A stretch of 53,728 bases of DNA from a virus (lineage: Duplodnaviria > Heunggongvirae > Uroviricota > Caudoviricetes), in the IMG/VR virus record IMGVR_UViG_3300033233_000005. One strand, 5' to 3'. This document shows, piece after piece, positions 1-50,467 of this stretch. The notes under the pieces are model-generated. The model was not told the DNA's origin, searched no databases, and saw only the letters and a program-made list of their open reading frames with translations. A program made the translations under genes and the position numbers. How positions within the stretch are numbered: position 1 is the first letter of the stretch; each line of letters starts with the position of its first letter.

Positions 1-41
1 ATCAATTCAATCATATCAAGGGTAGGGCATTAATCGCGTGT

Positions 42-254
42 TTGATGGTTGATATTGAGACTATGGCAAATAGACCAACTGGTGGCAGACCAGATAACGT
101 TGATAAGAATGTGTTGATGGCTAAGCATGTGCTATTCTTTGATTTCCTTCGTCAGATATGGAAAGAGATCAATATATTTGTTGATTGTAATGACATCGAC
201 AATGCAGTATATTGTATAGAGAAGCGATTATCAAGAATAAAAGAAGGGGGCTAA
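42..254 (+). CDS. hypothetical protein
   Basis: Short ORF abutting the next gene; its 3' end supplies the GAAGGGGG SD-like sequence of the next ORF. Confidence 0.4.
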   Translation: MMVDIETMANRPTGGRPDNVDKNVLMAKHVLFFDFLRQIWKEINIFVDCNDIDNAVYCIEKRLSRIKEGG

Positions 255-1012: not shown

Positions 1013-1474
1013 GTGATGCCCGATGTTGATATAGCCTCTGTGTTTACAGAGTGTTTGAGACGTGCCAAGAGGCGGTTCCCCAAGTCCCTTCCTTCCATCT
1101 TTGACGAGCAGGATCTTATTAGCGCTTGGAGCTATGGATTCTATTTGGGGTGGTTGAAAGTAGATTGGAACCGTGGTGACCCTTTGGAGTTCCTCATAGC
1201 AAATGGGATATTCTATATGCGCACTCTGCGGTATAGAACACTTGCGAAGAAGAACATCATCACGTGCGCTGTATGCGGTGGACGGATGAAGATGAGCCAG
1301 AAAGTATGCGGTAAGAAGTTGCGTGATGACAGTATCTGCTCTGGAACGGAGGAAGATCGGCAAATGCAACTCGCAGAAGTTTCCGATGAGTTTATAGAGA
1401 ATCGTGCCGACTATTCTTCTACTCATAGCAGGAGGAACGGGGAGTCTATACCTTCTAGGCCCAGCATAACTTAA
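1013..1474 (+). CDS. sigma-70 region 2-like protein with C-terminal Cys4 Zn ribbon
   Basis: DEQDLISAWSYGFYLGWLKVDWNRG...IFYMRTLR follows the region 2 pattern EDLxQEGxxGLxxAxxxFDxxRG; then CAVC-x10-C-x9-C; no region 4 HTH. Confidence 0.6.
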   Translation: MMPDVDIASVFTECLRRAKRRFPKSLPSIFDEQDLISAWSYGFYLGWLKVDWNRGDPLEFLIANGIFYMRTLRYRTLAKKNIITCAVCGGRMKMSQKVCGKKLRDDSICSGTEEDRQMQLAEVSDEFIENRADYSSTHSRRNGESIPSRPSIT

Positions 1475-1484
1475 AGGAGAGCAG

Positions 1485-2573
1485 ATGGATCAGAATGTAG
1501 ACGTCGTCATCGATGGGCAGTATGGCAGTACTGGTAAGGGTTTAATCTGTCAGACCATAGCAGACAATTACAAGTTGGCGGTAACATGTAATGCTCCAAA
1601 TGCTGGGCACACTATCAGATGGGATGGGAGCCAAAATCCAGAGGGGCAATGGATGGGAAGGAAGACCTTTAAGGCTAGGCACGTCCCATCCTCTGTCCTC
1701 AACAAAGACTGTAAGTTAGCTATCGGTGCTGGTGCTTTGATTGGAATGGAGGTATTAGAGAAGGAACTTCAAGAATTACACAGTCTAGGTGTTGAGATTG
1801 AAGATAGACTGTATATTGACCCTCATGCTACTATGGTGCAGACTAGACATGTTAATGCAGAGCATGAAAAGAAAGAAGGTTCAGACATGTTTGATCGCAT
1901 TGGGTCCACTCGTGAAGGATGTGGACCAGCGTGGGCCGAGCGTGTACTGCGTCGTGGTGGGACTCAATTAGCTTATATGGAACCATATCTACAGAGGTTT
2001 ATTAGTAAAGAGCCAGTATCCCACATGATTAGATCTTACGATCGAGTTCTTCTAGAGGGTGCACAAGGCACCGGTCTGTCGAATATTCACGGGATCTACC
2101 CATATACCACATTTAGGGATACTACCGCATCTGGATTCGCATCTGCGGCTGGGGTTCCGCCACGTGCTATTAGAAATGTAATCATGGTGATCAGAACCTA
2201 TCCGATCAGAGTTGCTGGTATGAGCGGGCCAACTGGTGGTAAAGAGCTTGATTGGACATATTTCAGCAAGAGAGCCGGTAAAGAAGTGTCAGAGAGAACA
2301 ACTGTTACCAATCGGGTGCGTAGAATATTTGAGTTCTCTATGGACGATTTTAAACACGCGGTTATTCTGAATGGACCAAATATCATCGCTCTTAACTTCT
2401 TGAATTACCTTGATCCGAGCGATGAAGGGAAGACTGATTTTGACAAATTGGGATCTGTGTCCCGCAAGTTTATCGACGACATAGAGGCCGTGGCTCAAGC
2501 TCCGGTATTAATTATGAGCACGTCGGCTGATTCGGTGGTAGTCAGACCAGAATTACAGCCGATGCTGGCATGA
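1485..2573 (+). CDS. purZ: PurZ, N6-succino-2-amino-2'-deoxyadenylate synthase (PurA paralogue)
   Basis: PurA fold motifs PNAGHT, GST, LEGAQG, RTYPIRV, TTVT..RR; P-loop QYGSTGKG has Ser15 where PurA has Asp (GDEGKG); N304-F-L-N307 in place of the PurA TKLD; YPYTTFR. Confidence 0.88.
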   Translation: MDQNVDVVIDGQYGSTGKGLICQTIADNYKLAVTCNAPNAGHTIRWDGSQNPEGQWMGRKTFKARHVPSSVLNKDCKLAIGAGALIGMEVLEKELQELHSLGVEIEDRLYIDPHATMVQTRHVNAEHEKKEGSDMFDRIGSTREGCGPAWAERVLRRGGTQLAYMEPYLQRFISKEPVSHMIRSYDRVLLEGAQGTGLSNIHGIYPYTTFRDTTASGFASAAGVPPRAIRNVIMVIRTYPIRVAGMSGPTGGKELDWTYFSKRAGKEVSERTTVTNRVRRIFEFSMDDFKHAVILNGPNIIALNFLNYLDPSDEGKTDFDKLGSVSRKFIDDIEAVAQAPVLIMSTSADSVVVRPELQPMLA

Positions 2574-2680
2574 TGACACTTCTGCTCCTTATGGCATTTT
2601 GTGTCGTTACAGTAAAACTTATAGAGAGAAGCCGCAATAGGATGATGCCAATGCCAACAACAACATTACAGGAGAAAATC

Positions 2681-2845
2681 ATGGCAGAAAAAGTCACATT
2701 ATATTCGAATGACGGCAAGCAGATCGCCACATGGATCACAGATGGAGAAGATATTACGATAGAGGGTGGCGATTGCAATTTCACTACAGATAAAGGTAAG
2801 CAAGTGAATACCGGTGGTGGCATAGTAATAGTCGAAGAAGTATAG
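2681..2845 (+). CDS. small hypothetical protein
   Basis: ATG 2681 preceded by AGGAGA; beta-rich, 54 aa. Confidence 0.6.
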   Translation: MAEKVTLYSNDGKQIATWITDGEDITIEGGDCNFTTDKGKQVNTGGGIVIVEEV

Positions 2846-2860
2846 TAAAAGGAGGCTCCT

Positions 2861-3151
2861 ATGCGACTAAGGAATATCACTGTATTCCTGTGGTGGTCGC
2901 TGGCGATGTTCCTGATAACTACCAACGTCACGCTGGTAATCGGCATGTCTATTATATTGTTAGCCGCCGCACCATTTGCCAAATGGATTGCTCCAAATGG
3001 GGATCAGGTAGATATTGCACCATCTAGAGGGATGCAGAGATTCAACAATCTGTATACTATGACCATGATGTCTGTAACTAAGGCCGCATTAATGAGTGGC
3101 GATCTTGAACCGCCCAAATTTAAAGTGACGGACCTGGGACAAGGAGGCTAA
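2861..3151 (+). CDS. membrane protein (two N-terminal TM segments)
   Basis: AGGAGG SD; hydrophobic stretches ITVFLWWSLAMFLIT and VTLVIGMSIILLAAAPF. Confidence 0.7.
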   Translation: MRLRNITVFLWWSLAMFLITTNVTLVIGMSIILLAAAPFAKWIAPNGDQVDIAPSRGMQRFNNLYTMTMMSVTKAALMSGDLEPPKFKVTDLGQGG

Positions 3152-3152
3152 C

Positions 3153-3488
3153 ATGTGGATACTGGAGATGGCTTTAGGTGTATCCGCCATCGCGCTAGTC
3201 CTGTATCCTGTGATAAGGTTACTAAATAGACTGCTGTATCCAGACTATCTGGAACATCGCCAGAAGGAACTTAGAACCTTTACCGCCCAACTATTGTCTA
3301 TCCATAGTCAAATGATAGAGGAATTGAATCAAGCTAGGAAAGAAATGGGTCTTGAAGAATTACCAATCACTCCGATAGCATCGAAATTCAAGAGCAGATA
3401 CTGGCACAATTTGTTGATTAATTGGAAGAATGCGGTTGAATCCTCTGCAATAAGAAGCCGGTGGTTCAAGAACACACTGGAGAAGTAA
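3153..3488 (+). CDS. membrane-anchored hypothetical protein
   Basis: AGGAGG SD; N-terminal TM ALGVSAIALVLYPVI. Confidence 0.7.
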   Translation: MWILEMALGVSAIALVLYPVIRLLNRLLYPDYLEHRQKELRTFTAQLLSIHSQMIEELNQARKEMGLEELPITPIASKFKSRYWHNLLINWKNAVESSAIRSRWFKNTLEK

Positions 3489-3490
3489 CT

Positions 3491-3874
3491 ATGAAGATGC
3501 TAAAGATTATCACGCATCCTATAGGCCTGCTGTTGTCGGTTGTATCTTTAGGAGTAGCGGGTGCCTTTACCCTAGAAGTTATGATCAGATTGTCTGAGTC
3601 TATGTTGGCTATGTCTGTGCCTGGCATGTCACCGATCATACAGACAGATTGGCCAAGGTCGCTATCTAGGATTCTGTGGTCTATGATGCTGTCGACTGTA
3701 TGCATGAAGATCGTGGTGGTGGTTCTTGATCTGGTCAGGTTCTCTCATGGGCGCAGAATAGTAGATATGACGCCACTTGACCAGATAGATGTGTTAGAGC
3801 ACGAATTTCTGCTCAGATGGAGTATGCGTGATGACGACGACGATGTAACTTCTGTATGGGAGGCAATACCATGA
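3491..3874 (+). CDS. membrane protein (two TM segments)
   Basis: GGAG SD; IGLLLSVVSLGVAGAFTL and ILWSMMLSTVCMKIVVVVL. Confidence 0.65.
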   Translation: MKMLKIITHPIGLLLSVVSLGVAGAFTLEVMIRLSESMLAMSVPGMSPIIQTDWPRSLSRILWSMMLSTVCMKIVVVVLDLVRFSHGRRIVDMTPLDQIDVLEHEFLLRWSMRDDDDDVTSVWEAIP

Positions 3875-4119
3875 AATATGCAGCTATGTCCATACTAGTA
3901 TTGCTATTATCTGGGTGTGCTGGTGACCCTGTGCGTCAAAAGGCGCGGGACCTGATGTATGCTATTGATCGGGACGCGAGAACATGTCATTGGCGATATG
4001 ATCCAACATGTACAGCAGACTTGAAGCTAAATTTCTGCAAGATTACCATAGATAGGATTGAATGGGATTATACCTGCACAAATGGACATATGGTTACACA
4101 CTTAGGAGTATTACCATGA
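3871..4119 (+). CDS. lipoprotein
   Basis: GGAGG SD; MKYAAMSILVLLLSGC = signal peptide with LSGC lipobox. Confidence 0.7.
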   Translation: MKYAAMSILVLLLSGCAGDPVRQKARDLMYAIDRDARTCHWRYDPTCTADLKLNFCKITIDRIEWDYTCTNGHMVTHLGVLP

Positions 4120-4547
4120 AAGACCCGGTGGAAGCCACTATACGGGCATTCGTTGATCTACAGAATACCGTACCCGATGGCTATAAATTCCCAGTGATGG
4201 TATGTGCTGTGTCCGCTGTAGCAGTGTTTATTATGTGCATGACATTTACTGATGTGTGGGTGCAGGAAAATCGTATAAACAAGTACTGGACGTCGATCTG
4301 TGATGAAGTGATTAATGAGATTGACGCTCTGATGCCAGTATATCATAAGGAAATGCTGGCATATGCACAGATGATGAAGAGGTCGATATTGAATAACAAA
4401 GGATTTACGACTGTGGTAGCCTCTATAGGAGAGGATGTCAAAATCAAAGCCGAGCGAGACTATTGCCTAGTAGATATCCATAATCAGGCCGCAGTGGATA
4501 TGCTGCAGGCTCAATTTGTGAAGTTGGTACAACAATGCAAGACTTGA
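4116..4547 (+). CDS. membrane-anchored hypothetical protein
   Basis: AGGAG SD, ATGA overlap with the previous gene; TM VMVCAVSAVAVFIMCMTF. Confidence 0.65.
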   Translation: MKDPVEATIRAFVDLQNTVPDGYKFPVMVCAVSAVAVFIMCMTFTDVWVQENRINKYWTSICDEVINEIDALMPVYHKEMLAYAQMMKRSILNNKGFTTVVASIGEDVKIKAERDYCLVDIHNQAAVDMLQAQFVKLVQQCKT

Positions 4548-4643: not shown

Positions 4644-5438
4644 ATGAGTTGGTTAGAGTCTGAGAAAGGTTCAACACTCCCCGAGTATATTCTAAGGTTC
4701 AAAGCGGATGACAAGTTTACCATCCGTATGTTGGACAATAACCGTCCCGAACGGGTGTTCACCCACAGCACCAGGAATCTACGGAATCAGTTCGTAAAGT
4801 TCCTGTGTGTTGGGCCTAAGGCAGGGTGTACATTTTGTGCTACCAATAAGGAACGCGAAGTAGCACATGCGAAGAACAAGGATAAGCCGTTCCCGACCAA
4901 GCTGGATTACGTCAAGCCAGTATATGTGTATGAAAAAGATGCGGTCATGTTGCTGATCGGAGTTGAAGTGTGGCAACAGATTGACTTCATCGAGTCTGTG
5001 TCTGGCAACTTGTCCGATAAGGATATCGTTGTTCAGGCTAGACAACAGGATCGGTTGACCTATTTTGCCCAGGCCGCTGCCGTTGGTCCATTCAACAAGC
5101 AGATAGATAAGGCGCAGGCGAGTGAGTTGATGACCAAGTACACCGAATACCTACGTGGTAACATTAAGTCGGTAGACAATATCCCACAGCCACAGGTTTC
5201 TGCTACCGCATCTGCTGAACCAGCTGGTGCCGGTGCTGCAGAGATTGAAGTGAGTGGTGATTTGAAATCTGTGCAGGACAAGTTGCTGTTCATGGTTGGA
5301 GACAATATGGACACGCAAGCCCTGTCCAAGTGCTTTGACAAGTTTGCATCCGGTAAGAATAAGATTAAAGACTTGACTATAGACGAATGCAACAAGATCA
5401 TTCCTGCTTATCAGGAAATGACCAAGGCAAAGAAGTAG
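4644..5438 (+). CDS. ssDNA-binding protein, gp32-like with Zn site
   Basis: AGGAGG SD; TIRML..(H41)..C..CTFC..PVYVYE..MLL pattern of gp32-like OB proteins; next to recA. Confidence 0.6.
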   Translation: MSWLESEKGSTLPEYILRFKADDKFTIRMLDNNRPERVFTHSTRNLRNQFVKFLCVGPKAGCTFCATNKEREVAHAKNKDKPFPTKLDYVKPVYVYEKDAVMLLIGVEVWQQIDFIESVSGNLSDKDIVVQARQQDRLTYFAQAAAVGPFNKQIDKAQASELMTKYTEYLRGNIKSVDNIPQPQVSATASAEPAGAGAAEIEVSGDLKSVQDKLLFMVGDNMDTQALSKCFDKFASGKNKIKDLTIDECNKIIPAYQEMTKAKK

Positions 5439-5815: not shown

Positions 5816-6832
5816 ATGGGATTAGCTGATGATCTAAAGAAACTTCATGATAAGTGCGATATAGTGGTGCCTGAATATGAGGCAGTCAGTTCTGGTATCC
5901 TCGCACTAGATTTTGCTACCACCGTTCCTGGGATTCCGCGTGGTACGATTATCGATTTCTATGGGAAAGAGGGCCTCGGTAAAACCACCACAGCCTTAAC
6001 TCTGGTCGCTGAGAGGATTAAGAATGGTGAGCGGTGTGCGTATATAGACGTCGAACAGCGGTTAAATGATCAATTAATTAACATGAACATCCCAAACAGA
6101 GATTTATTTGAAGTATTTCGTCCTAAGGATGGCGACGCAGCCCTATTTCTAGTCACTTCGCTGGTGCAGCATCCAGAGATCAAGATGATAGTATTGGACT
6201 CAGTTGCTGCATTGGCATTTAAAGAAGTCATGGAAGACATAGAAGGTGAGGGAGTGCACGTGGCTATCGTATCAAGAAAATTGTCTCCATTCTTCCAGCG
6301 AGTAATGACACCGATCAGAGAAAATGGTTGTATCCTAGTCTGCATCAATCAGTTGAGAACCAAACCGATGCAGATGACTAGAGGTATAACCGAGACTCCT
6401 ACCGGAGGGATGGCCATACGTTTCTATGCATCCTTCATGATGAATATGACTCCAGAATCATTCGTCCGTGATGGTGACAATTTGGCTGGCCACAGGGTCT
6501 ACATTACCATGGACAAGAATAACTTTGGTCCTAAGGGCCGTAAGGCGTATATGACGATCATGTATGGTCAAGGTGTAGATAAGGTTAGGGATGTTATTGA
6601 ATGCGGACAGCAGGTTGGAATGATAAAGAAATCTTCCAGCTGGTATTACTATAAGCAGGGGACACCGGAAGAGATAAAGGCTCTAGGTGAAAACCAATTA
6701 GTAGAAAAGCTGTCTCCTATCCTAGATAAAGTGCAGGCTGAAATACTGGCGGCATGGAAAAATGAGAATCCGGACGACGCACCCAAAGATGCTCCAGCAA
6801 TAGAGGAACCTGTAAAGCCAGAGGATAAGTAA
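5816..6832 (+). CDS. recA: RecA/UvsX-like recombinase
   Basis: SGILALD, GIPRG, Walker A GKEGLGKTT, YIDVE, IVLDSVA, INQLR, TPTGG.A..FYAS. Confidence 0.95.
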   Translation: MGLADDLKKLHDKCDIVVPEYEAVSSGILALDFATTVPGIPRGTIIDFYGKEGLGKTTTALTLVAERIKNGERCAYIDVEQRLNDQLINMNIPNRDLFEVFRPKDGDAALFLVTSLVQHPEIKMIVLDSVAALAFKEVMEDIEGEGVHVAIVSRKLSPFFQRVMTPIRENGCILVCINQLRTKPMQMTRGITETPTGGMAIRFYASFMMNMTPESFVRDGDNLAGHRVYITMDKNNFGPKGRKAYMTIMYGQGVDKVRDVIECGQQVGMIKKSSSWYYYKQGTPEEIKALGENQLVEKLSPILDKVQAEILAAWKNENPDDAPKDAPAIEEPVKPEDK

Positions 6833-7997: not shown

Positions 7998-8347
7998 TGC
8001 CTCGCAGCAGGTATTACAGTCGGGATGGAAAACCGCTTACGCTTATAGAGTGGGCCAAAAACCTGGAGAGACGGTCAGATAGCGGTAGAAGAGTGGCTGA
8101 GGCTACTGTTCCAGGCAATTTTTGGGTGTCTACTGTATGGCTGGGTGTAGATCACAATTACCGTCGTTCTGGCCCACCGCAAATATTTGAAACTATGGTA
8201 TTTAGATCTCATAAAGAACTCCATGAGTTCGATTGTGTACGATATACAACAGAAACGCAGGCCCTAAATGGGCATATAATTCTGGTTAAGAAATGGTCGC
8301 AATGGTGGAGAGACGAGGACAAATGGGAGCTACTTAAGAAATCATGA
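7997..8347 (+). CDS. conserved phage hypothetical protein
   Basis: VSTVWLGVDHNY...GPPQIFETMVF is a motif I recognise from phage hypotheticals. Confidence 0.65.
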   Translation: MPRSRYYSRDGKPLTLIEWAKNLERRSDSGRRVAEATVPGNFWVSTVWLGVDHNYRRSGPPQIFETMVFRSHKELHEFDCVRYTTETQALNGHIILVKKWSQWWRDEDKWELLKKS

Positions 8348-9687
8348 AAATATATATAGACTCTCCATATTCGATACTGTCATTGGAGGTAAATGATAAC
8401 GTATCTGCCCTGGATGGATTAAAGAGAGATCTTACCGTGACTATAAAGAAGTTTACGGGCATGGGCAAGCCACAGCTAGACAGAGTATGTCTGATTATGC
8501 CTAATCTGGCGTTTCGCACGGGCTTATTGACCCGGATACGCAGGTTAGCTCCACTGCATGGGTTAGCCATTAGTGAAGAGATAGACAGACGCGCCATGCC
8601 CAAGATCGATAAATCTCTATCCGGTAAGAAGGTCGATCTGCGTGATTATCAGGAAGAGGCTGTAACCAAGATGCTGCAATATGATATGGGAGTGTTGTGC
8701 GCTGCTACTGGTTCCGGCAAGACCCATATGGCGGCTAATATGATCGCTAAGCGGGCTGTGCCCACTCTATTCCTGGTTCATACAAAGGAACTGTTATACC
8801 AGACTCAGAAGCGATTTACAGAACTGCTCGGGATGAAGATTGGAGCCATAGGCGATGGTGTGTTTGAGCCTGAACCGATCACCGTGGCCACCATCCAAAC
8901 CCTGTACAGCCAAGGCGTGAATCCAGGCATCAAACCGCAGATGGTGATAGTAGATGAGACGCATCATCTACCAGCCGATATGTTCTTCACTGTTACCAGC
9001 CTGTATCCAGTTCGATATATGTATGGATTGAGCGCCACTCCATACCGCCTGGACGGAGCCGATCTCATGATTGAAGCTGGGGCAGGACCGATCATCGTTA
9101 GTATATCGGTTTCCGATCTGATCAAGCGGAAGATATTGTGTAAACCAGTGATCAGGTTCATACCGATAGGTACGGAGACTTCGTATTCCAAGGCTCCCAA
9201 GCATTATGTGGTCAGGAAGCATATAGTAAATAATGAACAACGCAACAATATTATCGCTGTGGAAACCAAGAAGTGTGCCGATAAAGGGCAATCCGTCCTT
9301 ATCGCAGTAAATTGGACCGAACATGCTAAACAGATTGAGATAAAATTAAAAGCGTTAGAGGTAGATTGTGAGATATTGGAAGGGAAATCTCCGACATATG
9401 TCAGGCAGCGCATTCTAAAAGAATTGCAGAGCAAGAAGTTGAAGGTGATAATCTCAACCATCATGAAAGAAGGCGTAGATGTCCCTTCTCTAGACGTAGT
9501 AATTAATGCGGCTGGTGGATCGGATAGTATGCAGTTGATCGGTAGGGCATTGCGCAAGTCCGATGGTAAGGAAACCGCCACCATTATAGATTTCGTAGAC
9601 AACCAACATATCACTTTACTACAGGCATCTAAAAACAGGATGAAGCGTTGTCAGGCTGAACCAGAATTCCTAGTAATCGCGGCCTAA
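8344..9687 (+). CDS. SF2 DExH helicase, UvsW-like
   Basis: LRDYQ, ATGSGKT, VDETHH, GLSATP, KEGVDVP, QLIGRALR. Confidence 0.93.
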   Translation: MKIYIDSPYSILSLEVNDNVSALDGLKRDLTVTIKKFTGMGKPQLDRVCLIMPNLAFRTGLLTRIRRLAPLHGLAISEEIDRRAMPKIDKSLSGKKVDLRDYQEEAVTKMLQYDMGVLCAATGSGKTHMAANMIAKRAVPTLFLVHTKELLYQTQKRFTELLGMKIGAIGDGVFEPEPITVATIQTLYSQGVNPGIKPQMVIVDETHHLPADMFFTVTSLYPVRYMYGLSATPYRLDGADLMIEAGAGPIIVSISVSDLIKRKILCKPVIRFIPIGTETSYSKAPKHYVVRKHIVNNEQRNNIIAVETKKCADKGQSVLIAVNWTEHAKQIEIKLKALEVDCEILEGKSPTYVRQRILKELQSKKLKVIISTIMKEGVDVPSLDVVINAAGGSDSMQLIGRALRKSDGKETATIIDFVDNQHITLLQASKNRMKRCQAEPEFLVIAA

Positions 9688-9697
9688 AGGAGAACAG

Positions 9698-10159
9698 GTG
9701 AAATTCGTCAGTTTATGGAGGGAGGAACCGGTACTTAAGGTAAAGCTTATATTTAGTAGCACTGTACCTACAACTAGTCCTCCTAAGACCAGGGTATTAG
9801 GCGACAAGGTATTTGGTGTCAAGTTGCCTGGTAACGATGTATGGTCTGTTATGAATATCAATGGGAACCGGTGGACTTTCATAAAACGGAGCAAAATGTG
9901 TGAAGGTCCGATAAATGGCAGGCACCGCTTTATCCGTAGCGATGGTGCCCTATTAAAGAGTGGAAGGCATGTTGGCGTAGATTGCATGTCTATACCCGAT
10001 GCCGTTAAAACTTTAAAGACTGTTGATCACCGTATCTTCTTTGATCCGTTCGCTATTACTAGGAACGGGGTGGGGGTGTCTTATCTTAAGCTCGAAGTAC
10101 CTAACGCCGCTAGCCAACTTGCACGTGACCGTAAGGATACAGGGGAGGCATTCATATGA
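9698..10159 (+). CDS. hypothetical protein
   Basis: AAGGAG SD with GTG start; overlaps the purB start. Confidence 0.65.
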   Translation: MKFVSLWREEPVLKVKLIFSSTVPTTSPPKTRVLGDKVFGVKLPGNDVWSVMNINGNRWTFIKRSKMCEGPINGRHRFIRSDGALLKSGRHVGVDCMSIPDAVKTLKTVDHRIFFDPFAITRNGVGVSYLKLEVPNAASQLARDRKDTGEAFI

Positions 10160-11301
10160 TTTCTGATCGATATGCAACTAAGATAGCCAGACATTGGTCA
10201 CCGGAAGAAAGGATTCAAACGTGGCTCAAGATTGAACTGCTTAATTTAAAAGCATATAGCCAAGAACACTATGAGAAAGCGTCTAAGGCGTTTAAGGATA
10301 TGTCCAACAAATATATAGCTGACCAGTCTAGATTGATAGAAGATAAGATCGGACATGAGGTTGAGGCATTCGTACAGTTCCTGAATCGGGTTTATCCAAC
10401 GGGTCTGTGGCATAAGGGGCTGGCATCATCTGATCTGGTTGAGTGCTCTAATGCGGTGGCCATGAATAAAGCTCTTCTGGAAATAACAGACGAGAAATAT
10501 CTACTTACCAATGGTCTTAGGTCATTGATGGTGACTTACAAAGATGCTCCAGCCCATGGATATACGCATGGTCAGAAGGCTGAGCCCATAACATGGGGAT
10601 TAAGATTCTTCGTATGGGCGGAGCAGCTAGAATACTTCCCTATGGTGTCAGTACGGGGCAAAATGACTGGTGCCGTGGGCACTGGGATCGTAACTGCTCC
10701 AGGTCTAGTCAGAGCGGTAGTTAATGAACTGCATATAGATATGTCAGCAGCGGCTACCCAAATAGTTCCAAGACATCAGCTATGTGGTACCCTAGATCAG
10801 ATTAGTGGATTGGCTATGGCTTTAGAGAAAATCTCAAACGATATGCGGATGCTATACACTCTGGATCAACTCCACATAGACAATATGCCTATTGGATCTA
10901 GTTCTATGCCTCATAAGGTTAATCCATACGAATTGGAACGCTTGATCGGTATGTGTAAAATGATCATGTCTATGGTAGATTGCATCAATAGGACCAATGC
11001 GGATGGTTGGCTAGAACGGGATCTAGTGCACTCTAGCGTAGAGCGTGAATTCCTGCCGGTCATATGCAATCATACATACTATGTGGTGAATAGATTGTCT
11101 GTGATACTAGGTAGATCACGATTCCGTCTGGCTACACCAGATGATTTGATATCACAATGGTCCTCAGTTAAATTGGCCGACATGCTGACACACGAAACAG
11201 ATAGAAAAGCGGCCAGAGAAGCGGCAAAGAGTGTGACCATAGAAGAATCGGTTGAGTATCTGTCTAGAATGAAAATCGCTGTGGATAAAATACTTGGATG
11301 A
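10156..11301 (+). CDS. purB: adenylosuccinate lyase
   Basis: Fumarase-superfamily signature GSSSMPHKVNP (10894-10926); HKGLASSD; GYTHGQKAEPITWG; KMTGAVGT; TQIVPR; LERDLVHSSVER. Confidence 0.92.
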   Translation: MISDRYATKIARHWSPEERIQTWLKIELLNLKAYSQEHYEKASKAFKDMSNKYIADQSRLIEDKIGHEVEAFVQFLNRVYPTGLWHKGLASSDLVECSNAVAMNKALLEITDEKYLLTNGLRSLMVTYKDAPAHGYTHGQKAEPITWGLRFFVWAEQLEYFPMVSVRGKMTGAVGTGIVTAPGLVRAVVNELHIDMSAAATQIVPRHQLCGTLDQISGLAMALEKISNDMRMLYTLDQLHIDNMPIGSSSMPHKVNPYELERLIGMCKMIMSMVDCINRTNADGWLERDLVHSSVEREFLPVICNHTYYVVNRLSVILGRSRFRLATPDDLISQWSSVKLADMLTHETDRKAAREAAKSVTIEESVEYLSRMKIAVDKILG

Positions 11302-11738: not shown

Positions 11739-12484
11739 GTTCAGCAGGAGATCCGATGGGAATATTTCAAGCCAACCATAAATGGGGTGAATGGGGTACC
11801 CCTACTCCAGATCGCACTGATAGATTACCAAAGCAATTTAGAGACTCTGTCCTGTCTTATATCAAGGATATTATAGATAGTAAGATGTGTGAGGTTGTAG
11901 TATATCCAATGAAAGCCGTATCTGGCACTAAAATGCCGGTAATGTTAAGCATCAGTGTGATGTATAGCCATTTTGAGATTATGATAATGGATAATACCAC
12001 CTTTGTCATTCATTTCAATGTCACTGAAACTCCTAAATCGCCAATAATGATGACTTCTGGTGCCATTAGAGATCGATATGATGTGCAATGTGATGATCCC
12101 CTGGTATTGCAGGAAATTGTGTCAGCTGGTGATAATGCCAAAGAAATATTAAAGTGGTTGTCTGTCCTGGTTGATTCTCCATGTAAGGTTATTCAGGCTG
12201 TGCGCATTACTCCACAACAGGGCTTGGAAAAGCGGTGGTTGGAAGAAGCAGCAAAACAGGATACGTGGACTACGACCACTACTACGACTCCATACATACA
12301 TCACAAATACGTACCAAATTCAAACAGCATCACTTGGGGTAGTGAAGAGCATGCTAAGATAACTTTCGGCACAGGTGATTACGGCAAAGACATTTTGAAA
12401 AATCAAGAACCGGGGTGGATAACAAATCAATATAATAAATTGGTTAATGTGGTTAGTCGTCTAAAATCGACTACAATCAAATGA
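11729..12484 (+). CDS. hypothetical protein with a Thr run
   Basis: 251-aa ORF containing WTTTTTTTP. Confidence 0.65.
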   Translation: MAIGSAGDPMGIFQANHKWGEWGTPTPDRTDRLPKQFRDSVLSYIKDIIDSKMCEVVVYPMKAVSGTKMPVMLSISVMYSHFEIMIMDNTTFVIHFNVTETPKSPIMMTSGAIRDRYDVQCDDPLVLQEIVSAGDNAKEILKWLSVLVDSPCKVIQAVRITPQQGLEKRWLEEAAKQDTWTTTTTTTPYIHHKYVPNSNSITWGSEEHAKITFGTGDYGKDILKNQEPGWITNQYNKLVNVVSRLKSTTIK

Positions 12485-12771
12485 GGGTGTGGCCTTACGA
12501 TCTCAGAGTAGCTGGTTTAACATTCAAGGTAAAGAGTATGGATGAAGTTGACTCAGATGCTATTGAATGCAGACGTGAACCTACCAATGAATTCGATTCA
12601 AGAGCCGTGGCAGTATATTGTATATATACTGGCAAAAAAGAGCCAAAACATGTTGGATATATACCAAAAGAGATTGCTCGAAACATACCTGATGAAAAGC
12701 TGCCATGTAATGGCCAGGTAGTATGGAAAACCGATGAGATCGGTAGATTTGGAATGAAGATTGCAATATGA
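12481..12771 (+). CDS. stand-alone HIRAN domain protein
   Basis: CRREPTNEFDSRAVAV...HVGYIP. Confidence 0.85.
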   Translation: MRVWPYDLRVAGLTFKVKSMDEVDSDAIECRREPTNEFDSRAVAVYCIYTGKKEPKHVGYIPKEIARNIPDEKLPCNGQVVWKTDEIGRFGMKIAI

Positions 12772-13375: not shown

Positions 13376-15769
13376 GTGGACCTAAAAGAATTAAAGATTA
13401 GAATACCGCTTGAGAAATTAGCCGACATGCTAGGCATCAAGGTCAAAGACTCCGGTAAGAACGCCGTAGCGTTGTGTCCGTTCCACAAGGACACTACCCC
13501 ATCTTTTACCATCGACAAGGCTAGGCAGATAGCCCGCTGCTTCTCTTCATCCTGTGCTGATCTAGGTGTAATTGACCATATCAAGCTAATAAAATTATAT
13601 GAGCATCTGGACGAAGACGATGCCGTAACTAGATTCTATGCCCTAGCAGGGGAAGAGCGTCCTGCGGACTCATCACAAGAGATATTGCACAAAATGTTAT
13701 CTCTGATCCATCAGAATATAACGATGGATGCGCCATTGAAATTCTTTCAGAATCGTGGCATTACCTTGGAAGCTCTGCAGAAACTAAAGGTCGGATATTC
13801 TCCATCAGCACAGTGGTTTAAGGATCAAATTAAGGATGTGCCACCGGACGAGTCGGCTAGATTGGAATTCTTTAGATCAGAAATGTTTGACAATGCCATT
13901 ATATATCCAGTGTATGATAGCTTGGGTAGAATGGCTGGATTTAGGAGCAGACCGTTCAAAGGCACAGCGAAGTATATAGCCAATTCCGGTGACTTTAAAT
14001 TCAAGGCCACTAGAGTCTATGGTATGCACTTAATTAAACATAATCGTCAGATCGTTCTGGTAGAAGGCCCCAATGATGTATTAGGATTGCTCTCTGCTGG
14101 AGTGTCGAATGTCGGTGGCCTGATGGGTTCTCATATGGAAGGCGTCGACAAGTATCTATGGAATCGTGGATTCAATGATGTAGTGTTTATAGCAGATGGT
14201 GATGAAGCGGGTGCTATGGCGATGATCAAAGCTCCACCACTTATTCGGGTGACCAAGATACCAATTGCTGGTGTGGACCCTGATGACTATGCACATCAAC
14301 AGGGCCTGTTGCCAGTTGTTAATTTGATCAATTCAGCTAAATTTCCCATTGAGATCAAATTGGAATCTAAGCTAAGCAAGATCCCAGCCGGTTTGACTGG
14401 TAAGGGGATGCTATTGAAATCCATTGCTCAGGATATATCTGATGGATTACCGTCGATATTGGTTGGTTTAGTTCAAGACTATGTAGCGACAGCCCTTGGA
14501 ATATCGCGAGAGGATGTAGCTAAGGTATTCGATCAAGTTGATTTGGATACCACGCGGCTGGAGAATAGAATGATAGCACACATGGCTAGTAATGGGGAAA
14601 CTTCTCCAGAGATTAGAACCAAAGTGATCCCACAGATGTTCTTTGATTCTAAGGCCCGTGCCCAATATAAACAGATACTGGATGGCTTGACCGTAACCGA
14701 TGTAACATCAACAATCACTGCATTCACGGAAGCCGACCTCGCGCAGTTTGTAGACCTAGCCACTAGGCGGCAGCTGCGTGTAGCTTTGAAGAAATCTTCC
14801 AACGACATAGCCAACATATCGATCCCCCTAGAAACCACATTAGAAAAGACCACTATTCAGATGTCGAATCTGACTATAGATGACGTTACGGTACTGTCAT
14901 CCGGTGAGGCATTGAGAGCAGAATTGGCCGACATTGAGGAACGGGCCAAGAACCCCGGACAATTGCTAGGCTTATCGTTTGGTCCTAGGTTCCCCAAAAT
15001 GGATCAAATTCTATTCGGACTTAGACCAAATAACATGTATATCGTAGCGGCTACGACCGGTATGGGTAAATCCAATCTAGCCTTGGAATGGGCCATACAT
15101 ATGTCGCACAATGATAACGTACCCGTGCTGTGGGTATCACTAGAAATGTCTGCTAGGGAGATGGCTGCAAGAAGACTTGCCAAGATAACTGGTGTAAGCA
15201 TGACTAGTATCCTCAGAGCAGAGTTAACTGTTGAACAGACTAAATTACTAAAGGATCAAGCAATCAATCATGCCTTAACGCCATTTTATGAGGCATATTG
15301 CGGCGGAATCACCATCCATCAGATCGTATCGCTGATCAGAAAGTACAAGATTACCAAGGATATCAAGGCAGTATATATAGACTACATCCAGCTGGTTCAA
15401 GGTGGACCTGAGGATAGGGGCAGTTACGAGAGAATAGGTTATATATCTGGAATGCTCAAGAACCAAGTTACTATGAGTAAATCGATAGGCATCCCGGTTG
15501 TAGCCATATCTCAGTTAACTAGACAGGCCGCTAAGGTAGAAGTGCCAACGGCAGAAAATGTAGCGGAATCGTATAAAATAAGTCAGGATGCAGATGCCTT
15601 CCTTGCTATTAAGCAGAGAACTGAATTTGAGATTGAGGAAGACAAGCTCCAGGGTAGGAATTATGGCAATATGTTACTAAATATAGACAAGAATAGAGAA
15701 GGTCCATCCAAGCAGATAGTGGGACTGATATTTAACAAAGACAATCTATCAATCAAAGAGGTGGTTTAA
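13376..15769 (+). CDS. DNA primase-helicase fusion (CHC2 Zn finger, TOPRIM, DnaB-like)
   Basis: CPFHKDTTPSF...CFSSSC; LVEGPND, FIADGDEAG; AATTGMGKS, IDYIQL, ISQLTR, DKNREG. Confidence 0.93.
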   Translation: MDLKELKIRIPLEKLADMLGIKVKDSGKNAVALCPFHKDTTPSFTIDKARQIARCFSSSCADLGVIDHIKLIKLYEHLDEDDAVTRFYALAGEERPADSSQEILHKMLSLIHQNITMDAPLKFFQNRGITLEALQKLKVGYSPSAQWFKDQIKDVPPDESARLEFFRSEMFDNAIIYPVYDSLGRMAGFRSRPFKGTAKYIANSGDFKFKATRVYGMHLIKHNRQIVLVEGPNDVLGLLSAGVSNVGGLMGSHMEGVDKYLWNRGFNDVVFIADGDEAGAMAMIKAPPLIRVTKIPIAGVDPDDYAHQQGLLPVVNLINSAKFPIEIKLESKLSKIPAGLTGKGMLLKSIAQDISDGLPSILVGLVQDYVATALGISREDVAKVFDQVDLDTTRLENRMIAHMASNGETSPEIRTKVIPQMFFDSKARAQYKQILDGLTVTDVTSTITAFTEADLAQFVDLATRRQLRVALKKSSNDIANISIPLETTLEKTTIQMSNLTIDDVTVLSSGEALRAELADIEERAKNPGQLLGLSFGPRFPKMDQILFGLRPNNMYIVAATTGMGKSNLALEWAIHMSHNDNVPVLWVSLEMSAREMAARRLAKITGVSMTSILRAELTVEQTKLLKDQAINHALTPFYEAYCGGITIHQIVSLIRKYKITKDIKAVYIDYIQLVQGGPEDRGSYERIGYISGMLKNQVTMSKSIGIPVVAISQLTRQAAKVEVPTAENVAESYKISQDADAFLAIKQRTEFEIEEDKLQGRNYGNMLLNIDKNREGPSKQIVGLIFNKDNLSIKEVV

Positions 15770-16581
15770 TGGCTAATCCTATAGGACCGATCAATTCTGG
15801 AACCACAGCCTCTAGTCCATACATTGCTATCTCACCATATACGGTATCAACCGGGTCTCCGTGGTCTACCTCTACTACAGTAACATCAACTGGGTCTATA
15901 GCTGAATGGCCTACAATAAGAGTATTCGATAATATCGTAGTTAGCTTTAAAAGTTTCTTGAATGACATCACAACAGTCAGGGATGAGAATGGCATGCTTA
16001 TCTGTGATGAATTAAGAACCATATTTATATATAAAGAGCCATCCATTATAGATATGCCAAAATTGAGGCAGCCTGGATACAAAATGGTTGATATCGGTAA
16101 AAACTCTCCTTATGCTACATCGTTTACAGTAAAAGATTTCGTTAAGATAATGAATACTGTGATGATCTATTGTAAGGATCTGGCATTCGGAATGCCACAC
16201 CGCAAGTATGATTCAGTCGGATTCGATCTGCATTGTTTAAAAGATGCTGTGGTGGAACCGGGTGAATTCATGGATGTAGAAACTGGGGTACATTGTGCAT
16301 TCCCATCACATATTTGGGGTTTGCTGGTATCGCGTAGTAGCATATTTAAGAAACGCCTGATAGTGAATACAGGCATCATAGACCCTGGATTTCAGGGTGA
16401 ATTATTCGCGTGTGTCTATAATGCAGGTAAGGAACAGTTTAAAATAGAACGTGGAGATAGATTAGCGCAGTTAATACCCATGCAGGACGTCCCTATGATA
16501 GGAGTCCAACAAGCGTATGGGTTGGATGAATTTCCCGCCACTAACCGTGGCACCAATGGGTTCGGATCAACGGGTAAATAA
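15769..16581 (+). CDS. dut: trimeric dUTPase-fold protein with about 130-aa N-terminal extension
   Basis: Five motifs: VGFDL, SRSS, GIIDPGFQGE, GDRLAQL, RGTNGFGSTG. Confidence 0.85.
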   Translation: MANPIGPINSGTTASSPYIAISPYTVSTGSPWSTSTTVTSTGSIAEWPTIRVFDNIVVSFKSFLNDITTVRDENGMLICDELRTIFIYKEPSIIDMPKLRQPGYKMVDIGKNSPYATSFTVKDFVKIMNTVMIYCKDLAFGMPHRKYDSVGFDLHCLKDAVVEPGEFMDVETGVHCAFPSHIWGLLVSRSSIFKKRLIVNTGIIDPGFQGELFACVYNAGKEQFKIERGDRLAQLIPMQDVPMIGVQQAYGLDEFPATNRGTNGFGSTGK

Positions 16582-16822: not shown

Positions 16823-17032
16823 GTGAAATATTTCGTAGTTACACCTGCGTACGAGTCCGGAGGTTCGGAATATGAGCCTCCGGACTACGGCAGTGACGTA
16901 GCAGAGATTGAAGCTATCAATAGAAGGCTGGCTAAAGCAGTAGGACTTAAAGCACTAAGAAAGATGAATAGTAGATGGGTAGACGATTTAGGAAACAATC
17001 CATTTAAGGGATTAAAGGTGTATAGAGCATGA
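16823..17032 (+). CDS. hypothetical protein
   Basis: GTG start directly after the previous stop; overlaps the dnaE start. Confidence 0.6.
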   Translation: MKYFVVTPAYESGGSEYEPPDYGSDVAEIEAINRRLAKAVGLKALRKMNSRWVDDLGNNPFKGLKVYRA

Positions 17033-20016
17033 ACGATACTTATGTATCCCTTCACAATCACACGTTCTATTCAACCCTAGATGGTTTAAATAAGCCGATA
17101 GAGCTTGCCCAGACTGCCAAAGAAATGGGTTCTCCAGCCATAGCTATCACTGACCATGGAACTCTAGCTGGCATACCGGAATTCTTTGAAGCATGCAGGA
17201 AGACCGGAGTGAAGCCAATATTGGGTAATGAAATGTATTCAGTCCCTGATATAACAATTAGAGAAATCCTGATCACCCCGACAAAGAAACAATCGCGATC
17301 TGGCTACCATCTAACACTGTTAGCTAAAAATGCTACTGGATTTAAGAATTTGGTGGCTTTGAATAACATAGCATTCATGCGTGGGTTTTATTATTATCCT
17401 AAAATAGATTGGAAAGCACTGCTTGAGCACAAAGAGGGTTTAATAGTATTGTCAGCTTGTGCTTCGTCCGAATTGAGTCAATATTCAATCATGGACAGGG
17501 CACACAACGTTGCACCCAAATTCAAGGAAGCATTCGGTGACGATTATTATATGGAATTGATGGACAATTATATGGTCAAAGAATTACAACGTGGATTAAA
17601 TGAGAAGTTCTTAGAAGCAGCCAAGAAATTCAATATCAAATGTGTGGCTACCAATGATGCTCATTACCTAAAACAGGATATGTATGATATACATGATGTC
17701 GCCACCTGTATACAACAAAAGAAAACTATATCTACACCAGGTAGATTAAAATACGACGGCTTCTATCATCTAAAATCGATGACTGAAATGATCAAGGTAT
17801 TCCCACGTGAAGCCATCAATAATACTTTGGAAGTGGCAGAAAAGATAGAAGCATTCGATATCTATGACAAGACTATGCGATTGCCCCTGATGATGGGTGA
17901 AGATCCCGATGTATTATTGCGGATGTTGGCTACGGATGGATTAAAAAAGCGCAATCTTACGGGAGCGGTCTATATAGATCGCTTGAATAGAGAATTGGAA
18001 GTCATAGCCAAACTAGGATTGTCGGCATATTTTTTGGTAACCAAAGACATCATCGATAGTTCAATCAGATCCATCGGCTGTACAATGGCTTGGGGTAGAG
18101 GCTCATCTGCCTCTTCTTTAGTGTGCTATGCGCTAAGGATAACCGATGTCGACCCGATCAAGAGTGGCTTGCTGTTTGAACGGTTTGTAAATCCTCACCG
18201 CCCTGACTGGCCCGATATCGACATAGACGTGCCGCAGCAACACCGGCAGGAAGTCATAGCCAAGATATTTGAAAAATACGGGATTGATAAGGTAGCCCAC
18301 ATATCTACCATGCATAACTTGCGTCCTAAGATGCTGGTTAAAGACCTATGCAAGACGCTTGAATTAGACGCGGTTGATGCGGCCAAGCTAGCGGGGGCCG
18401 TTCCATTCGAAGCCACTGGCTGGGATGATTTGAAGGATAATAAGAAATTCACGGACATCGTAGATACTATGCCCGATAGTAATAAATTGATGGGATATTT
18501 GCAGTATCTGCTTGGTCTACCCAAGCATTTGGGTACCCATGCATCAGGGATCATCATTTCTAGTGACCCGATTACCGATCGTCTACCGATCAGGATGGAT
18601 GATACCAAAATGGTGTCTCAGTACACCATGCATCACGTCCATAAATTCGGGTTTATGAAATTCGACATCCTGGGATTAAAGACCTTAGATATCATATTCG
18701 CTGCGGCTAAGGATGCCGGTATAGACCTCAAGAATATACCGATGGAAGACAAGAAGACTTTCGATCTGATAGGTGAAGGTCGAGTGATAGGCGTGTTCCA
18801 GCTTGATGGATCACATTCCTATATCAAGCTATGCCGAGATATGAAACCAATCAAGTTTGATGAAATATGCCATATCGTTGCTCTACACCGTCCTGGAATA
18901 ATGGATTCTGGACAATTAACAGTGTATCTGGACAGACGCGCCGGTAGAATACCGGTCAAATATATACATCCTGACCTGGAACCGATATTAAAAGAAAATT
19001 ATGGCATCTGTATCTTCCAGGAAGACATGATGAAAATGGCACAAGTGTTTGCCAACTTCTCTTTAGCTGAGGCCGAGGATTTGCGCAAGGCCATCGCCAA
19101 GAAAGATCCTGAATTGATGAAACTGCAGAGTGCCAAGTTCACTGAACGAGCTACTGCATTGGGTAGAGACAAGGATAGTATCGCGTCCGCTCTAAGCATG
19201 CTAGAAGCGTCTGCTAGGTATTCATGGAATAAGGCGCATGGCTATGGCTATGGGCATATCACATATGCCTGTGCCTACCTGTCGGCTAATTATCCATTGC
19301 AGTTTTTCACCCATCTAATCAATATGGCATCAGAGGAAGACAAATCTACGTATCTGACTGAGGCGATGGCGCGTGGACTTAAGATCCTACCCCCTGATGT
19401 TAATAGATCCAATAAGAATGCTACTATCGATGGTGATGCTATCCGGTTGGGTCTGACTTCGATCAAGGGAATAGGCGACGCAATAGCAGACAAGATTATC
19501 AAGAACAGACCCTATGATAAGATCGACAAATTAAAAGCTACCGTCAATAAAACGGCTATCACCCTATTGTACTCAGTCAAGGCTGTAAGCACAGTTGGTG
19601 ATGCAGAAACTTGGGACCCCGGATTAAAGGCGGATGAATCTACCCTACTCGGTATATCACTCAGCAATAATCAAGCTGATTACGATAAACTGATCAAGGT
19701 AGCTGGGGCCGATCCAGTTCATACGATTGCTGGGATAGGGACTGCTATAGTTAAAATATTAACAGTTAAAGAAGTGACAGACAAATTAAAGAGAAAGATG
19801 GCTTTCTTAACTGGTGTAGATGTGCATGGTCCCAAACATGACATGGTTATGTTTGCTACGGAATATCAAGAGATGAAACCAAAACCCGGTGAGACATATA
19901 TTATGACCTTACGTAAGACACCAATAGGTAGCATGCAAATTAGGGGTTTGATATCGACCAAGGAATACATAGAACGGTATAATAAAAATCCTGCAAATGC
20001 CGAGAAGATCACATAG
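17029..20016 (+). CDS. dnaE: DNA polymerase III alpha subunit (family C)
   Basis: PHP domain HNHT..STLDG, TDHG, GNE, YHL, TNDAHY; GRGSSASS; catalytic PDIDID; KFDILGL; HhH LGLTSIKGIG; C-terminal OB fold. Confidence 0.97.
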   Translation: MNDTYVSLHNHTFYSTLDGLNKPIELAQTAKEMGSPAIAITDHGTLAGIPEFFEACRKTGVKPILGNEMYSVPDITIREILITPTKKQSRSGYHLTLLAKNATGFKNLVALNNIAFMRGFYYYPKIDWKALLEHKEGLIVLSACASSELSQYSIMDRAHNVAPKFKEAFGDDYYMELMDNYMVKELQRGLNEKFLEAAKKFNIKCVATNDAHYLKQDMYDIHDVATCIQQKKTISTPGRLKYDGFYHLKSMTEMIKVFPREAINNTLEVAEKIEAFDIYDKTMRLPLMMGEDPDVLLRMLATDGLKKRNLTGAVYIDRLNRELEVIAKLGLSAYFLVTKDIIDSSIRSIGCTMAWGRGSSASSLVCYALRITDVDPIKSGLLFERFVNPHRPDWPDIDIDVPQQHRQEVIAKIFEKYGIDKVAHISTMHNLRPKMLVKDLCKTLELDAVDAAKLAGAVPFEATGWDDLKDNKKFTDIVDTMPDSNKLMGYLQYLLGLPKHLGTHASGIIISSDPITDRLPIRMDDTKMVSQYTMHHVHKFGFMKFDILGLKTLDIIFAAAKDAGIDLKNIPMEDKKTFDLIGEGRVIGVFQLDGSHSYIKLCRDMKPIKFDEICHIVALHRPGIMDSGQLTVYLDRRAGRIPVKYIHPDLEPILKENYGICIFQEDMMKMAQVFANFSLAEAEDLRKAIAKKDPELMKLQSAKFTERATALGRDKDSIASALSMLEASARYSWNKAHGYGYGHITYACAYLSANYPLQFFTHLINMASEEDKSTYLTEAMARGLKILPPDVNRSNKNATIDGDAIRLGLTSIKGIGDAIADKIIKNRPYDKIDKLKATVNKTAITLLYSVKAVSTVGDAETWDPGLKADESTLLGISLSNNQADYDKLIKVAGADPVHTIAGIGTAIVKILTVKEVTDKLKRKMAFLTGVDVHGPKHDMVMFATEYQEMKPKPGETYIMTLRKTPIGSMQIRGLISTKEYIERYNKNPANAEKIT

Positions 20017-48989: not shown

Positions 48990-48991
48990 TT

Positions 48992-50458: not shown

Positions 50459-50467
50459 CACTGGAGT

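Follow-up and report, generated by a model that had tools for sequence, protein, structure and literature searches.

A serine-type PurZ-like gene in a 164-kb phage contig and the possible replacement of adenine by 2-aminoadenine

In the uncultured tailed phage (Caudoviricetes) of IMG/VR record IMGVR_UViG_3300033233_000005, positions 1485 to 2573 (plus strand) of the 53,728-nucleotide stretch analysed here (the window) encode a 362-residue homologue of adenylosuccinate synthetase (PurA) in which serine stands where PurA has its catalytic aspartate, as it does in the PurZ enzymes of phages that use 2-aminoadenine (Z). The gene is best read as encoding a functional enzyme of the Ser-type PurA family of phages, that is, a PurZ in the broad sense, which would act on a guanine nucleotide with ATP. 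An earlier sequence-only reading had proposed that this large phage substitutes Z for A. Homology, pocket residues, gene content and a conserved gene module together suggest, with a probability of roughly 0.6, that Z indeed replaces A in the 164-kb genome. Observed are the integrity and homology of the gene, its conserved pocket residues, the gene content and the module; from these we infer what the DNA is composed of and the specificity of each catalytic step. The window corresponds to positions 22,550-76,277 of a 163,875-bp ENA contig with terminase and structural genes, and gene content was read over positions 4,453-131,709 of that record (127 kb of 164 kb).

The purZ-like open reading frame (protein P0001) has no internal stop in its 362 codons. 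An AAGGAG ribosome-binding site, read directly from the sequence, lies at 1474-1479 (plus strand), 5 nt ahead of the ATG, and the TAA stop of the upstream gene ends at 1474. The protein matches Pfam PF00709 (E 5.4e-47), the fold expected of a PurZ, and PHROG 1211, '2-aminooxy adenylosuccinate synthetase' (E 5.6e-69). Sequence matches to solved structures are the short PurA of Pyrococcus horikoshii (1e-42), phiVC8 PurZ (1e-35), PurZ0 (7VF6; 2e-34) and S-2L PurZ (4.6e-26). An AlphaFold model built on an alignment of 20 relatives (pLDDT, the predicted local confidence score, 91.6) superposes on the same proteins with template-modelling (TM) scores of 0.84 for short archaeal PurA, 0.82 for PurZ0 7VF6, 0.79 for phiVC8 PurZ and 0.78 for S-2L PurZ. 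The likeness of the encoded protein to adenylosuccinate synthetases is one of homology and not of chance.

The contacts listed for S-2L PurZ (PMC8342488) were mapped by structure-guided alignment with phage reference proteins taken from their own records. Ser15 (AGT, 1527-1529) aligns with S23 of S-2L, with S14 of the phiVC8-type/VP2 enzyme and with the catalytic Asp of PurA (D14 in the Salmonella PurA row, Met1 counted). In the motif N304-F305-L306-N307 (2394-2405; N304 at 2394-2396, N307 at 2403-2405), N304-F305-N307 aligns with N305-F306-Q308 of S-2L, with N294-F295-N297 of VP2 and with T-K-(L)-D of PurA. T272-T273-V274-T275 forms the T-T-V-T tip of the aspartate loop; its first residue (2298-2300) corresponds to T273 of S-2L and to a Gly in PurA. 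When the sequence was reread, these residues, together with R211 (2115-2117) and the run T272-T-V-T...R279-R-I-F, were found at the very codons that the sequence-only reading had named, and the motifs that it attributed to S-2L and phiVC8-type PurZ (Ser and NxxN/Q) hold on the phage records checked.

All reliably alignable contacts of the S-2L dGMP and donor pockets are kept in the protein, namely Y13-G14-S15, N39-A40-G41-H42-T43, G140-S141-T142, R156, Q194, Y207-T208-T209, R242-V243, T272-T275, R279 and N304-F305-N307. The three substrate-touching residues of the S-2L enzyme described as specific to PurZ, S23, T273 and Q308 (PMC8342488), become S15, T272 and N307. Similarly, the VpPurZ residues F12, S14, T262, F295 and Y298, flagged by metaGPA on dZ-enriched contigs, become Y13, S15, T272, F305 and Y308. 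The enzyme is thus expected to bind a guanine nucleotide, most likely dGMP, with Ser15 and Thr272 in place of Asp and Gly leaving room for the 2-amino group. Since N307 falls on the guanine-reading Asp of PurA and F305 on its Lys, ATP or dATP is predicted as phosphate donor over GTP, N304, F305 and N307 replacing the T-K-x-D that reads guanine. The PurZ0 marker, Ser with a retained guanine-reading Asp, is not found, as Ser is present and the Asp position is N307. The PurA markers (catalytic Asp13, loop Gly and T-K-L-D) are absent as well, with S15, T272 and N-F-L-N in their stead.

Serine is found at this position in all of the best 120 database relatives. The nearest of them are seven metagenomic proteins (55-62% identity) with a T/N-F-L-N motif; identity to known phage PurZ and PurZ0 is only 30-34%. 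A 266-row FastTree tree and a 117-row IQ-TREE tree (LG+C20 PMSF model) agree on the clades reported here. In both, Ser-type proteins form one clade separate from canonical PurA (support 98-100), and the query lies in an 8-row clade (100), the sister group of which (93) has 23 rows and contains nine IMG/VR viral contigs, most of them longer than 100 kb. The resulting 31-row clade joins classical PurZ, including that of Bacillus phage vB_BpsS-140, in a polytomy with a support of 85; the PurZ0 references are grouped in a clade of their own (100), with the cellular fused Ser-type family (discussed below) outside. By tree topology, the protein belongs to the phage Ser-type (PurZ/PurZ0) clade as an uncharacterised branch made up largely of IMG/VR viral contigs. 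A vWA-linked PurA-like branch was also considered as its identity and was ruled out, as the gene lacks a vWA neighbour and the protein carries the Ser, the Thr and the NxxN motif alike. No close relative came up when 20 kb was compared with phage records by megablast, and an exact-word scan of IMG/VR with P0001 returned no match.

These results bear on ordinary purine supply, in which a divergent PurA and a phage PurB would raise AMP and dATP from IMP for the needs of a large phage. Such a role is highly improbable, given that the catalytic Asp, 99% conserved in PurA (PMC12884076), is Ser here, that the Asp-loop Gly is Thr, with F and N in place of the K and D that read GTP, that every PurA equivalog cut-off is missed by a wide margin with the protein nested in the Ser-type clade (98-100), and that raising dATP would conflict with the DutZ-like dATP hydrolase and the adenine-removing NDT/ADA operon described below. 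It would account for the short archaeal PurA of P. horikoshii being the best match in the PDB by both sequence and fold, for an archaeal PurA equivalog being the top NCBIfam model, and for PurB, ribonucleotide reductase and dCMP deaminase on the contig, a set seen in nucleotide-hungry phages; true Asp-type PurA does occur in some phages, such as megaphage LR756501.

Three sets of candidate helper genes would fit a Z pathway in this phage. The first encodes a 381-aa PurB-like adenylosuccinate lyase (10156-11301, plus strand) with the signature loop SSSMPHKVNP and a TH137G motif. It matches Lyase_1 (2.8e-29) and TIGR00928 purB (1.2e-56; 192 bits, under the cut-off of 326), and is 29% identical to the 'PurB-like' protein of Streptomyces phage Galactica (about 4e-29 to 6e-30). 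From its family matches, this lyase is a candidate for the step from N6-succino-2-amino-deoxyadenylate (dSMP) to the Z deoxynucleotide (dZMP).

The second helper is a 270-aa Dut-like protein (15769-16581, plus strand) with a trimeric dUTPase domain at about residues 140-270 (PF00692, 2e-23), a candidate DutZ, or dATP/dGTP diphosphatase, by sequence similarity. Among the 745 phage records that match the domain, the best-ranked, including the top 40 listed, are all PurZ0/DutZ phages (E 1e-18 to 1e-24), namely Microbacterium Goodmanvirus, Arthrobacter Korravirus including Wayne, Gordonia phage Sapo, Streptomyces phage Galactica and a Micrococcus phage; non-Z phages begin at about E 1e-13. Identity to the domain of Arthrobacter phage Wayne is 39.9% (E 6e-21). 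The Dut-like proteins of Wayne (DmtZ-DutZ) and Ghobes hydrolyse dATP and dGTP, and dutZ is present in all 98 PurZ0 genomes of the same study (PMC12884076). The N-terminal 135 or so residues (15769-16173) are Ser/Thr-rich and then apparently folded, with a poor stored model; they have no Pfam match, no usable Atlas match and no homologue in 80 viral loci, and a likeness to DmtZ could not be demonstrated for this extension. A variant of Dut motif III, G-I-I-D-P-G-F, was tried as a DutZ marker and dropped, as x-G-Y forms also occur among PurZ-linked Duts.

The third set lies outside the window, at about 116.8-120.7 kb of the record (L196:15628-19495), in an operon for a helix-turn-helix-metallophosphoesterase protein, a DUF6899 protein, a protein of 175 aa and, as the last two, an NDT-like and an adenosine-deaminase-family protein. 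The first of this pair has Tyr/Asp/Glu triad motifs and matches PF05014 just below the gathering score (E 5e-6), and the adjoining deaminase-family protein matches PF00962 (1.6e-40). By their families, these two enzymes could clear dAMP and adenine and so aid a Z pathway.

A route to Z may then be outlined. Addition of aspartate by the PurZ-like enzyme would yield N6-succino-2-amino-(deoxy)adenylate, from which the phage PurB-like lyase would release fumarate to give dZMP, and kinases, possibly including the NMP-kinase-like protein encoded at the start of the window, would raise dZMP to dZTP. The DutZ-like protein would keep dATP out of DNA and at the same time supply dGMP from dGTP, while the NDT-like N-glycosidase and the adenosine-deaminase-family enzyme would add to the removal of adenine. 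Lastly, a DnaE-type polymerase would copy the genome with Z for A. That a large-phage lineage has in this way fully swapped A for Z, with a PurZ-like enzyme, its own PurB, a DutZ-like protein and NDT/ADA enzymes, and a genome copied by DnaE, has in our estimation an even chance of being correct.

The predicted polymerase is a 995-aa family C (Pol III alpha) enzyme (17029-20016, plus strand) with PHP, DNA_pol3_alpha, finger and HHH_6 domains and a TIGR00594 score of 782 bits, over the cut-off. It is the sole replicative-type polymerase seen on the contig; a protein with a LigD-type Prim-Pol domain is also encoded (L193:12765-14723).

Parts of this arrangement recur in other viruses. Of 80 IMG/VR loci in which a PurZ-like gene is present, 58 have a Dut homologue no more than 10 kb from it, often immediately downstream. 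PolA is found in 39 of the 80, DnaE in seven, and DatZ-like, DUF550-like and PurB-like genes in two each. In all seven DnaE-bearing contigs (L129, L130, L140, L156, L157, L164 and L167), Dut, RecA and primase-helicase are present as well. Among cultured phages, the purZ-recA-primase/helicase-dut-dnaE arrangement was found only in Bacillus phage vB_BpsS-140 (MH884512), which shares the order purZ-like, recA, helicase, primase-helicase, (adenylate kinase), dut and DnaE-type polymerase. It differs in that its PurZ-like protein (annotated 'purA') is 34% identical and branches at the base of classical PurZ, and in that its genome is 55 kb; no PurB-like gene was seen in it. Its DnaE frame, unannotated, is split into two overlapping frames of 366 and 853 aa (MH884512, about 48,875-52,488; L209:876-4489), which may reflect a frameshift, a sequencing error or programmed recoding. 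DNA of vB_BpsS-140 was, alone in its study, not cut by DraI, and was cut by EcoRI (PMC6483233). A 25-kb part of its sequence contains 12 TTTAAA (DraI) sites. Because EcoRI cut despite the resistance to DraI, these restriction data are taken as a lead only. As a cultured phage (DSM 29700), vB_BpsS-140 offers a proxy in which the question of Z-DNA can be decided.

Several results weigh against a Z genome and have to be set beside this evidence. The first concern classification. The NCBIfam PurZ model NF038379 gives 218.3 bits against a curated cut-off of 300, and the archaeal short-PurA equivalog NF003295 gives a little more, 249 bits where its cut-off is 368. With both scores under their cut-offs, curated membership holds for neither PurZ nor archaeal PurA. 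In the trees, the protein lies outside both biochemically characterised clades, PurZ and PurZ0, as a neighbour of PurZ, and an approximately unbiased (AU) test did not reject forcing the query clade and PurZ0 together (p 0.25), for which reason a firm placement with PurZ as against PurZ0 was dropped. Given this position and the AU result, the donor and substrate assignment rests on the motifs. Of the claim that this gene is a PurZ, the intact Ser-type gene, its ATP-type NxxN motif and its residence in a real large phage have stood, whereas placement in a characterised clade and a curated-level score have not. Likewise, the phylogeny proposed as a check on that claim sets the protein apart from canonical PurA (98-100) but not within the PurZ or PurZ0 clade.

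A second point concerns the sugar. R277 aligns with R303 of E. coli PurA, a residue in contact with the ribose 2'-OH, and the protein lacks the long loop insertion seen in S-2L and PMBT28, so that a preference for deoxy- or ribonucleotide is not fixed by the sequence. The genome might therefore acquire Z by a ribonucleotide route, in which GMP is converted, after PurB, to 2-amino-AMP, which is phosphorylated and from which the phage's ribonucleotide reductase then makes dZDP. Besides R277 and the missing insertion, which is said to push a Val against C2' in S-2L PurZ, this route could draw on the phage-encoded reductase and the NMP-kinase-like protein. However, phiVC8-type PurZ likewise has no long insertion, carries Lys at the R277 position and is yet dGMP-specific; V243, the residue proposed to clash with the 2'-OH, is kept, and a DutZ-like enzyme would give dGMP directly. 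The ribonucleotide route is accordingly quite improbable as the source of Z, and dGMP is preferred as the substrate of the PurZ-like enzyme.

The helper genes and the replicase raise further objections. A tree of 70 Dut domains leaves the query in a basal polytomy, where it has a long branch and falls outside the non-Z group. An identification of the NDT-like protein as DmtZ was rejected, since there is no BLAST similarity and the resemblance is at motif level; at the positions of Asp12 and Asn77 of DmtZ, its residues are Ser and Asp. Neither Pfam annotation nor tblastn with S-2L and PMBT28 proteins as queries found DatZ/HD, MazZ/MazG/DUF550 or DpoZ in record positions 4,453-131,709; the same part of the contig gave no match to PolA (DpoZ-1), the polymerase being DnaE/Pol III alpha. 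To our knowledge, no family C polymerase has been demonstrated to use dZTP.

The remaining objection comes from cellular genomes. A scan of species-representative genomes for the P-loop G-S-[ET]-[GA]-K-G recovered at least 568 cellular Ser-type relatives, most of which consist of a P-loop kinase of about 190 aa fused to a Ser-type T-x-x-D domain. A P-loop Ser by itself is thus no marker of a Z genome, and the argument must rest on clade and context. The cellular proteins share that Ser with the PurZ-like protein and are 36-41% identical to it, above the characterised PurZ; they differ in forming a separate clade, in having T-F-x-D and T-S-T-T (T-T-V-T in the PurZ-like protein), in their N-terminal P-loop kinase and in being chromosomal. 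A full-length PurA is also kept in the four bacterial and Thermoplasmata genomes checked, and a Cenarchaeum genome with a Ser-type relative has a short archaeal-type PurA alongside.

In 47 of 58 loci, a gene for a CapP/IrrE-like M78 peptidase lies directly upstream of the cellular Ser-type fusion. The two genes form a module of a peptidase of about 470 aa (PADLOC capP, 4.5e-19) followed by the kinase/Ser-type PurZ-like fusion with TxxD, and the fused kinase resembles the N-terminal part of a defensive dCTP deaminase model. Members were seen at L023:3962-7053 and in Terriglobus roseus (L068), Sorangium (L027 and L029), Pseudomonas sp. TH43 (L082), Xanthomonas floridensis (L074) and Bradyrhizobium (L064). 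This module has the appearance of a so far undescribed system, directed at nucleotides, for defence or stress. In bacterial chromosomes, Ser-type PurA relatives in this defence-like module are widespread, which tempers the value of the Ser signature as a marker of Z genomes.

Both the cellular module and the missing partners speak to a further possibility, that the phage manipulates the purine pool without full genome substitution and DnaE still writes mostly A. The pool enzymes might drain dGMP or dATP, might make a Z or succinyl nucleotide that serves as signal, decoy or anti-defence molecule, or might lead to partial incorporation of Z. The part of the contig searched has neither a dedicated dATPase (DatZ) nor a Z-selective polymerase; the cellular Ser-type enzymes, found with CapP/IrrE-like proteases and a kinase like that of defensive dCTP deaminase, suggest pool-directed roles outside Z genomes; and a Z-cluster expressed in E. 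coli led only to partial substitution (PMC8342488). In the phages studied, on the other hand, a PurZ-family gene with a dATP-removing partner goes together with complete substitution (PMC12884076), the linkage of PurZ and Dut in 58 of 80 viral loci fits the DutZ logic of dATP removal with dGMP supply, and the cellular proteins, with their TxxD motif, fall in a clade apart. Pool manipulation of this kind is unlikely, and replacement of A by Z remains the preferred reading.

The locus mixes features of both known types, combining the ATP-type donor motif of PurZ with the Dut-based helpers of PurZ0, and adds a phage PurB, DnaE and a 164-kb genome. The classical PurZ set (Vibrio phage phiVC8/VP2, S-2L, Acinetobacter SH-Ab 15497-type and Salmonella PMBT28; 6FM1, 6FKO, 6TNH and 7ODX) shares with it the fold, Ser for Asp, the Asp-loop Thr, the Arg in Y-P-Y-x-T-x-R and N-F-x-N/Q, and is its nearest clade in the trees. 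Besides the low identity (30-34%), the PurZ-like protein differs in keeping a C-terminal segment that classical PurZ has lost and that resembles those of archaeal PurA and PurZ0; in place of a datZ-mazZ cluster and a DpoZ or PrimPol replicase, this phage has Dut-like, PurB-like and DnaE proteins.

PurZ0, the GTP-dependent variant (from Ghobes, a Gordonia phage, and Wayne, an Arthrobacter phage; 7VF6), is likewise Ser-type, and resembles the protein in length and C-terminal architecture. The helpers are similar in kind, this phage having a Dut-family protein with DutZ as its best hits and an NDT-superfamily protein; among the PurZ0 phages, Streptomyces phage Galactica adds a PurB-like lyase. 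Unlike the protein described here, which has Asn, PurZ0 keeps the Asp of T/S-x-x-D (D in Ghobes, Huntingdon, Galactica and Johann alike), and it has S-S or S-N where the PurZ-like protein has F-R. Its phages are actinophages of 40-80 kb with the PolA-type DpoZ-1, in contrast to a 164-kb phage with DnaE, in which the NDT-like gene is not linked to that for the Dut-like protein and is not detectably DmtZ. The short archaeal PurA of P. horikoshii (5K7X/2D7U) is the best match overall (E 1e-42, TM 0.84) and similarly has none of the bacterial PurA insertions; it differs in its catalytic Asp, loop Gly, T-x-L-D for GTP and IMP as substrate.

The named Z-genome phages phiVC8, SH-Ab 15497, S-2L, PMBT28, Ghobes and Wayne have genomes of about 40-50 kb where records were checked, use a PolA-type DpoZ, or PrimPol in S-2L, and rely on host PurB. 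The word DnaE occurred in none of the papers returned by a full-text search of the PurZ/diaminopurine literature, and a 2026 survey in Nucleic Acids Research (NAR) makes no mention of PurB or polymerase III. If the present phage does carry Z-DNA, that lifestyle would reach large phages, beyond the small PolA and PrimPol phages. A Pol III-type enzyme with PHP proofreading would then copy Z:T pairs, which would offer synthetic biology a family C polymerase, and the Z pathway would have been put together, for a third time, out of interchangeable parts.

The purZ-like gene stands in a co-directional replication and nucleotide block that extends from the NMP-kinase-like gene through SbcCD and ribonucleotide reductase. 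At its start, positions 3-254 (plus strand) encode the C-terminal part of a P-loop nucleoside-monophosphate (NMP)-kinase-like protein of 169 aa, the gene for which begins 255 nt before the window (L001:8261-8770). All its family matches are sub-threshold (Cytidylate_kin 4.5e-5, ADK 6e-4, AAA_33 9e-4), and it is 27% identical to the adenylate kinase of vB_BpsS-140 (E 0.02). On these similarities, it is a candidate dNMP/dZMP kinase. Kinases repeatedly adjoin PurZ-like genes or are fused to them.

Directly upstream of purZ, 1013-1474 (plus strand) encodes a small sigma-factor-like protein with Sigma70_r2 phage proteins as its nearest Atlas clusters (score 0.94); these neighbours, together with the lack of a Pfam match, ruled out MazZ or DatZ as its identity. 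The purZ neighbours at 212-883, 2570-4547 and 4644-5438, among others, had no Pfam, PHROG or NCBIfam match even at E 1, and the same three collections revealed no concealed MazG or HD protein among the neighbours. A RecA/UvsX-like recombinase of the shared replication module (5816-6832, plus strand), a weakly matched RusA-like resolvase in the purZ block (E 2.3e-5) and a UvsW-type DNA helicase (8344-9687, plus strand) were also found. A free-standing HIRAN-domain protein of 96 aa (12481-12771; PF08797, 6.7e-7) is encoded between the PurB-like lyase and a DnaG-DnaB primase-helicase fusion (13376-15769, plus strand). The block also contains the SbcCD genes and, for nucleotide supply, the large subunit of ribonucleotide reductase (23577-25772, plus strand); a dCMP deaminase is encoded on the contig as well.

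Two observations concern other parts of the contig. In the structural region, a 488-aa protein (48992-50458) has a stored match to ChaB (PF06150). Outside the window (L193:11188-14723), an ATP-dependent DNA ligase of 526 aa is followed by a protein of 652 aa that has both a LigD Prim-Pol and a LigD_N phosphoesterase domain, and the two make up a split LigD-like end-joining set that is unusual for a phage.

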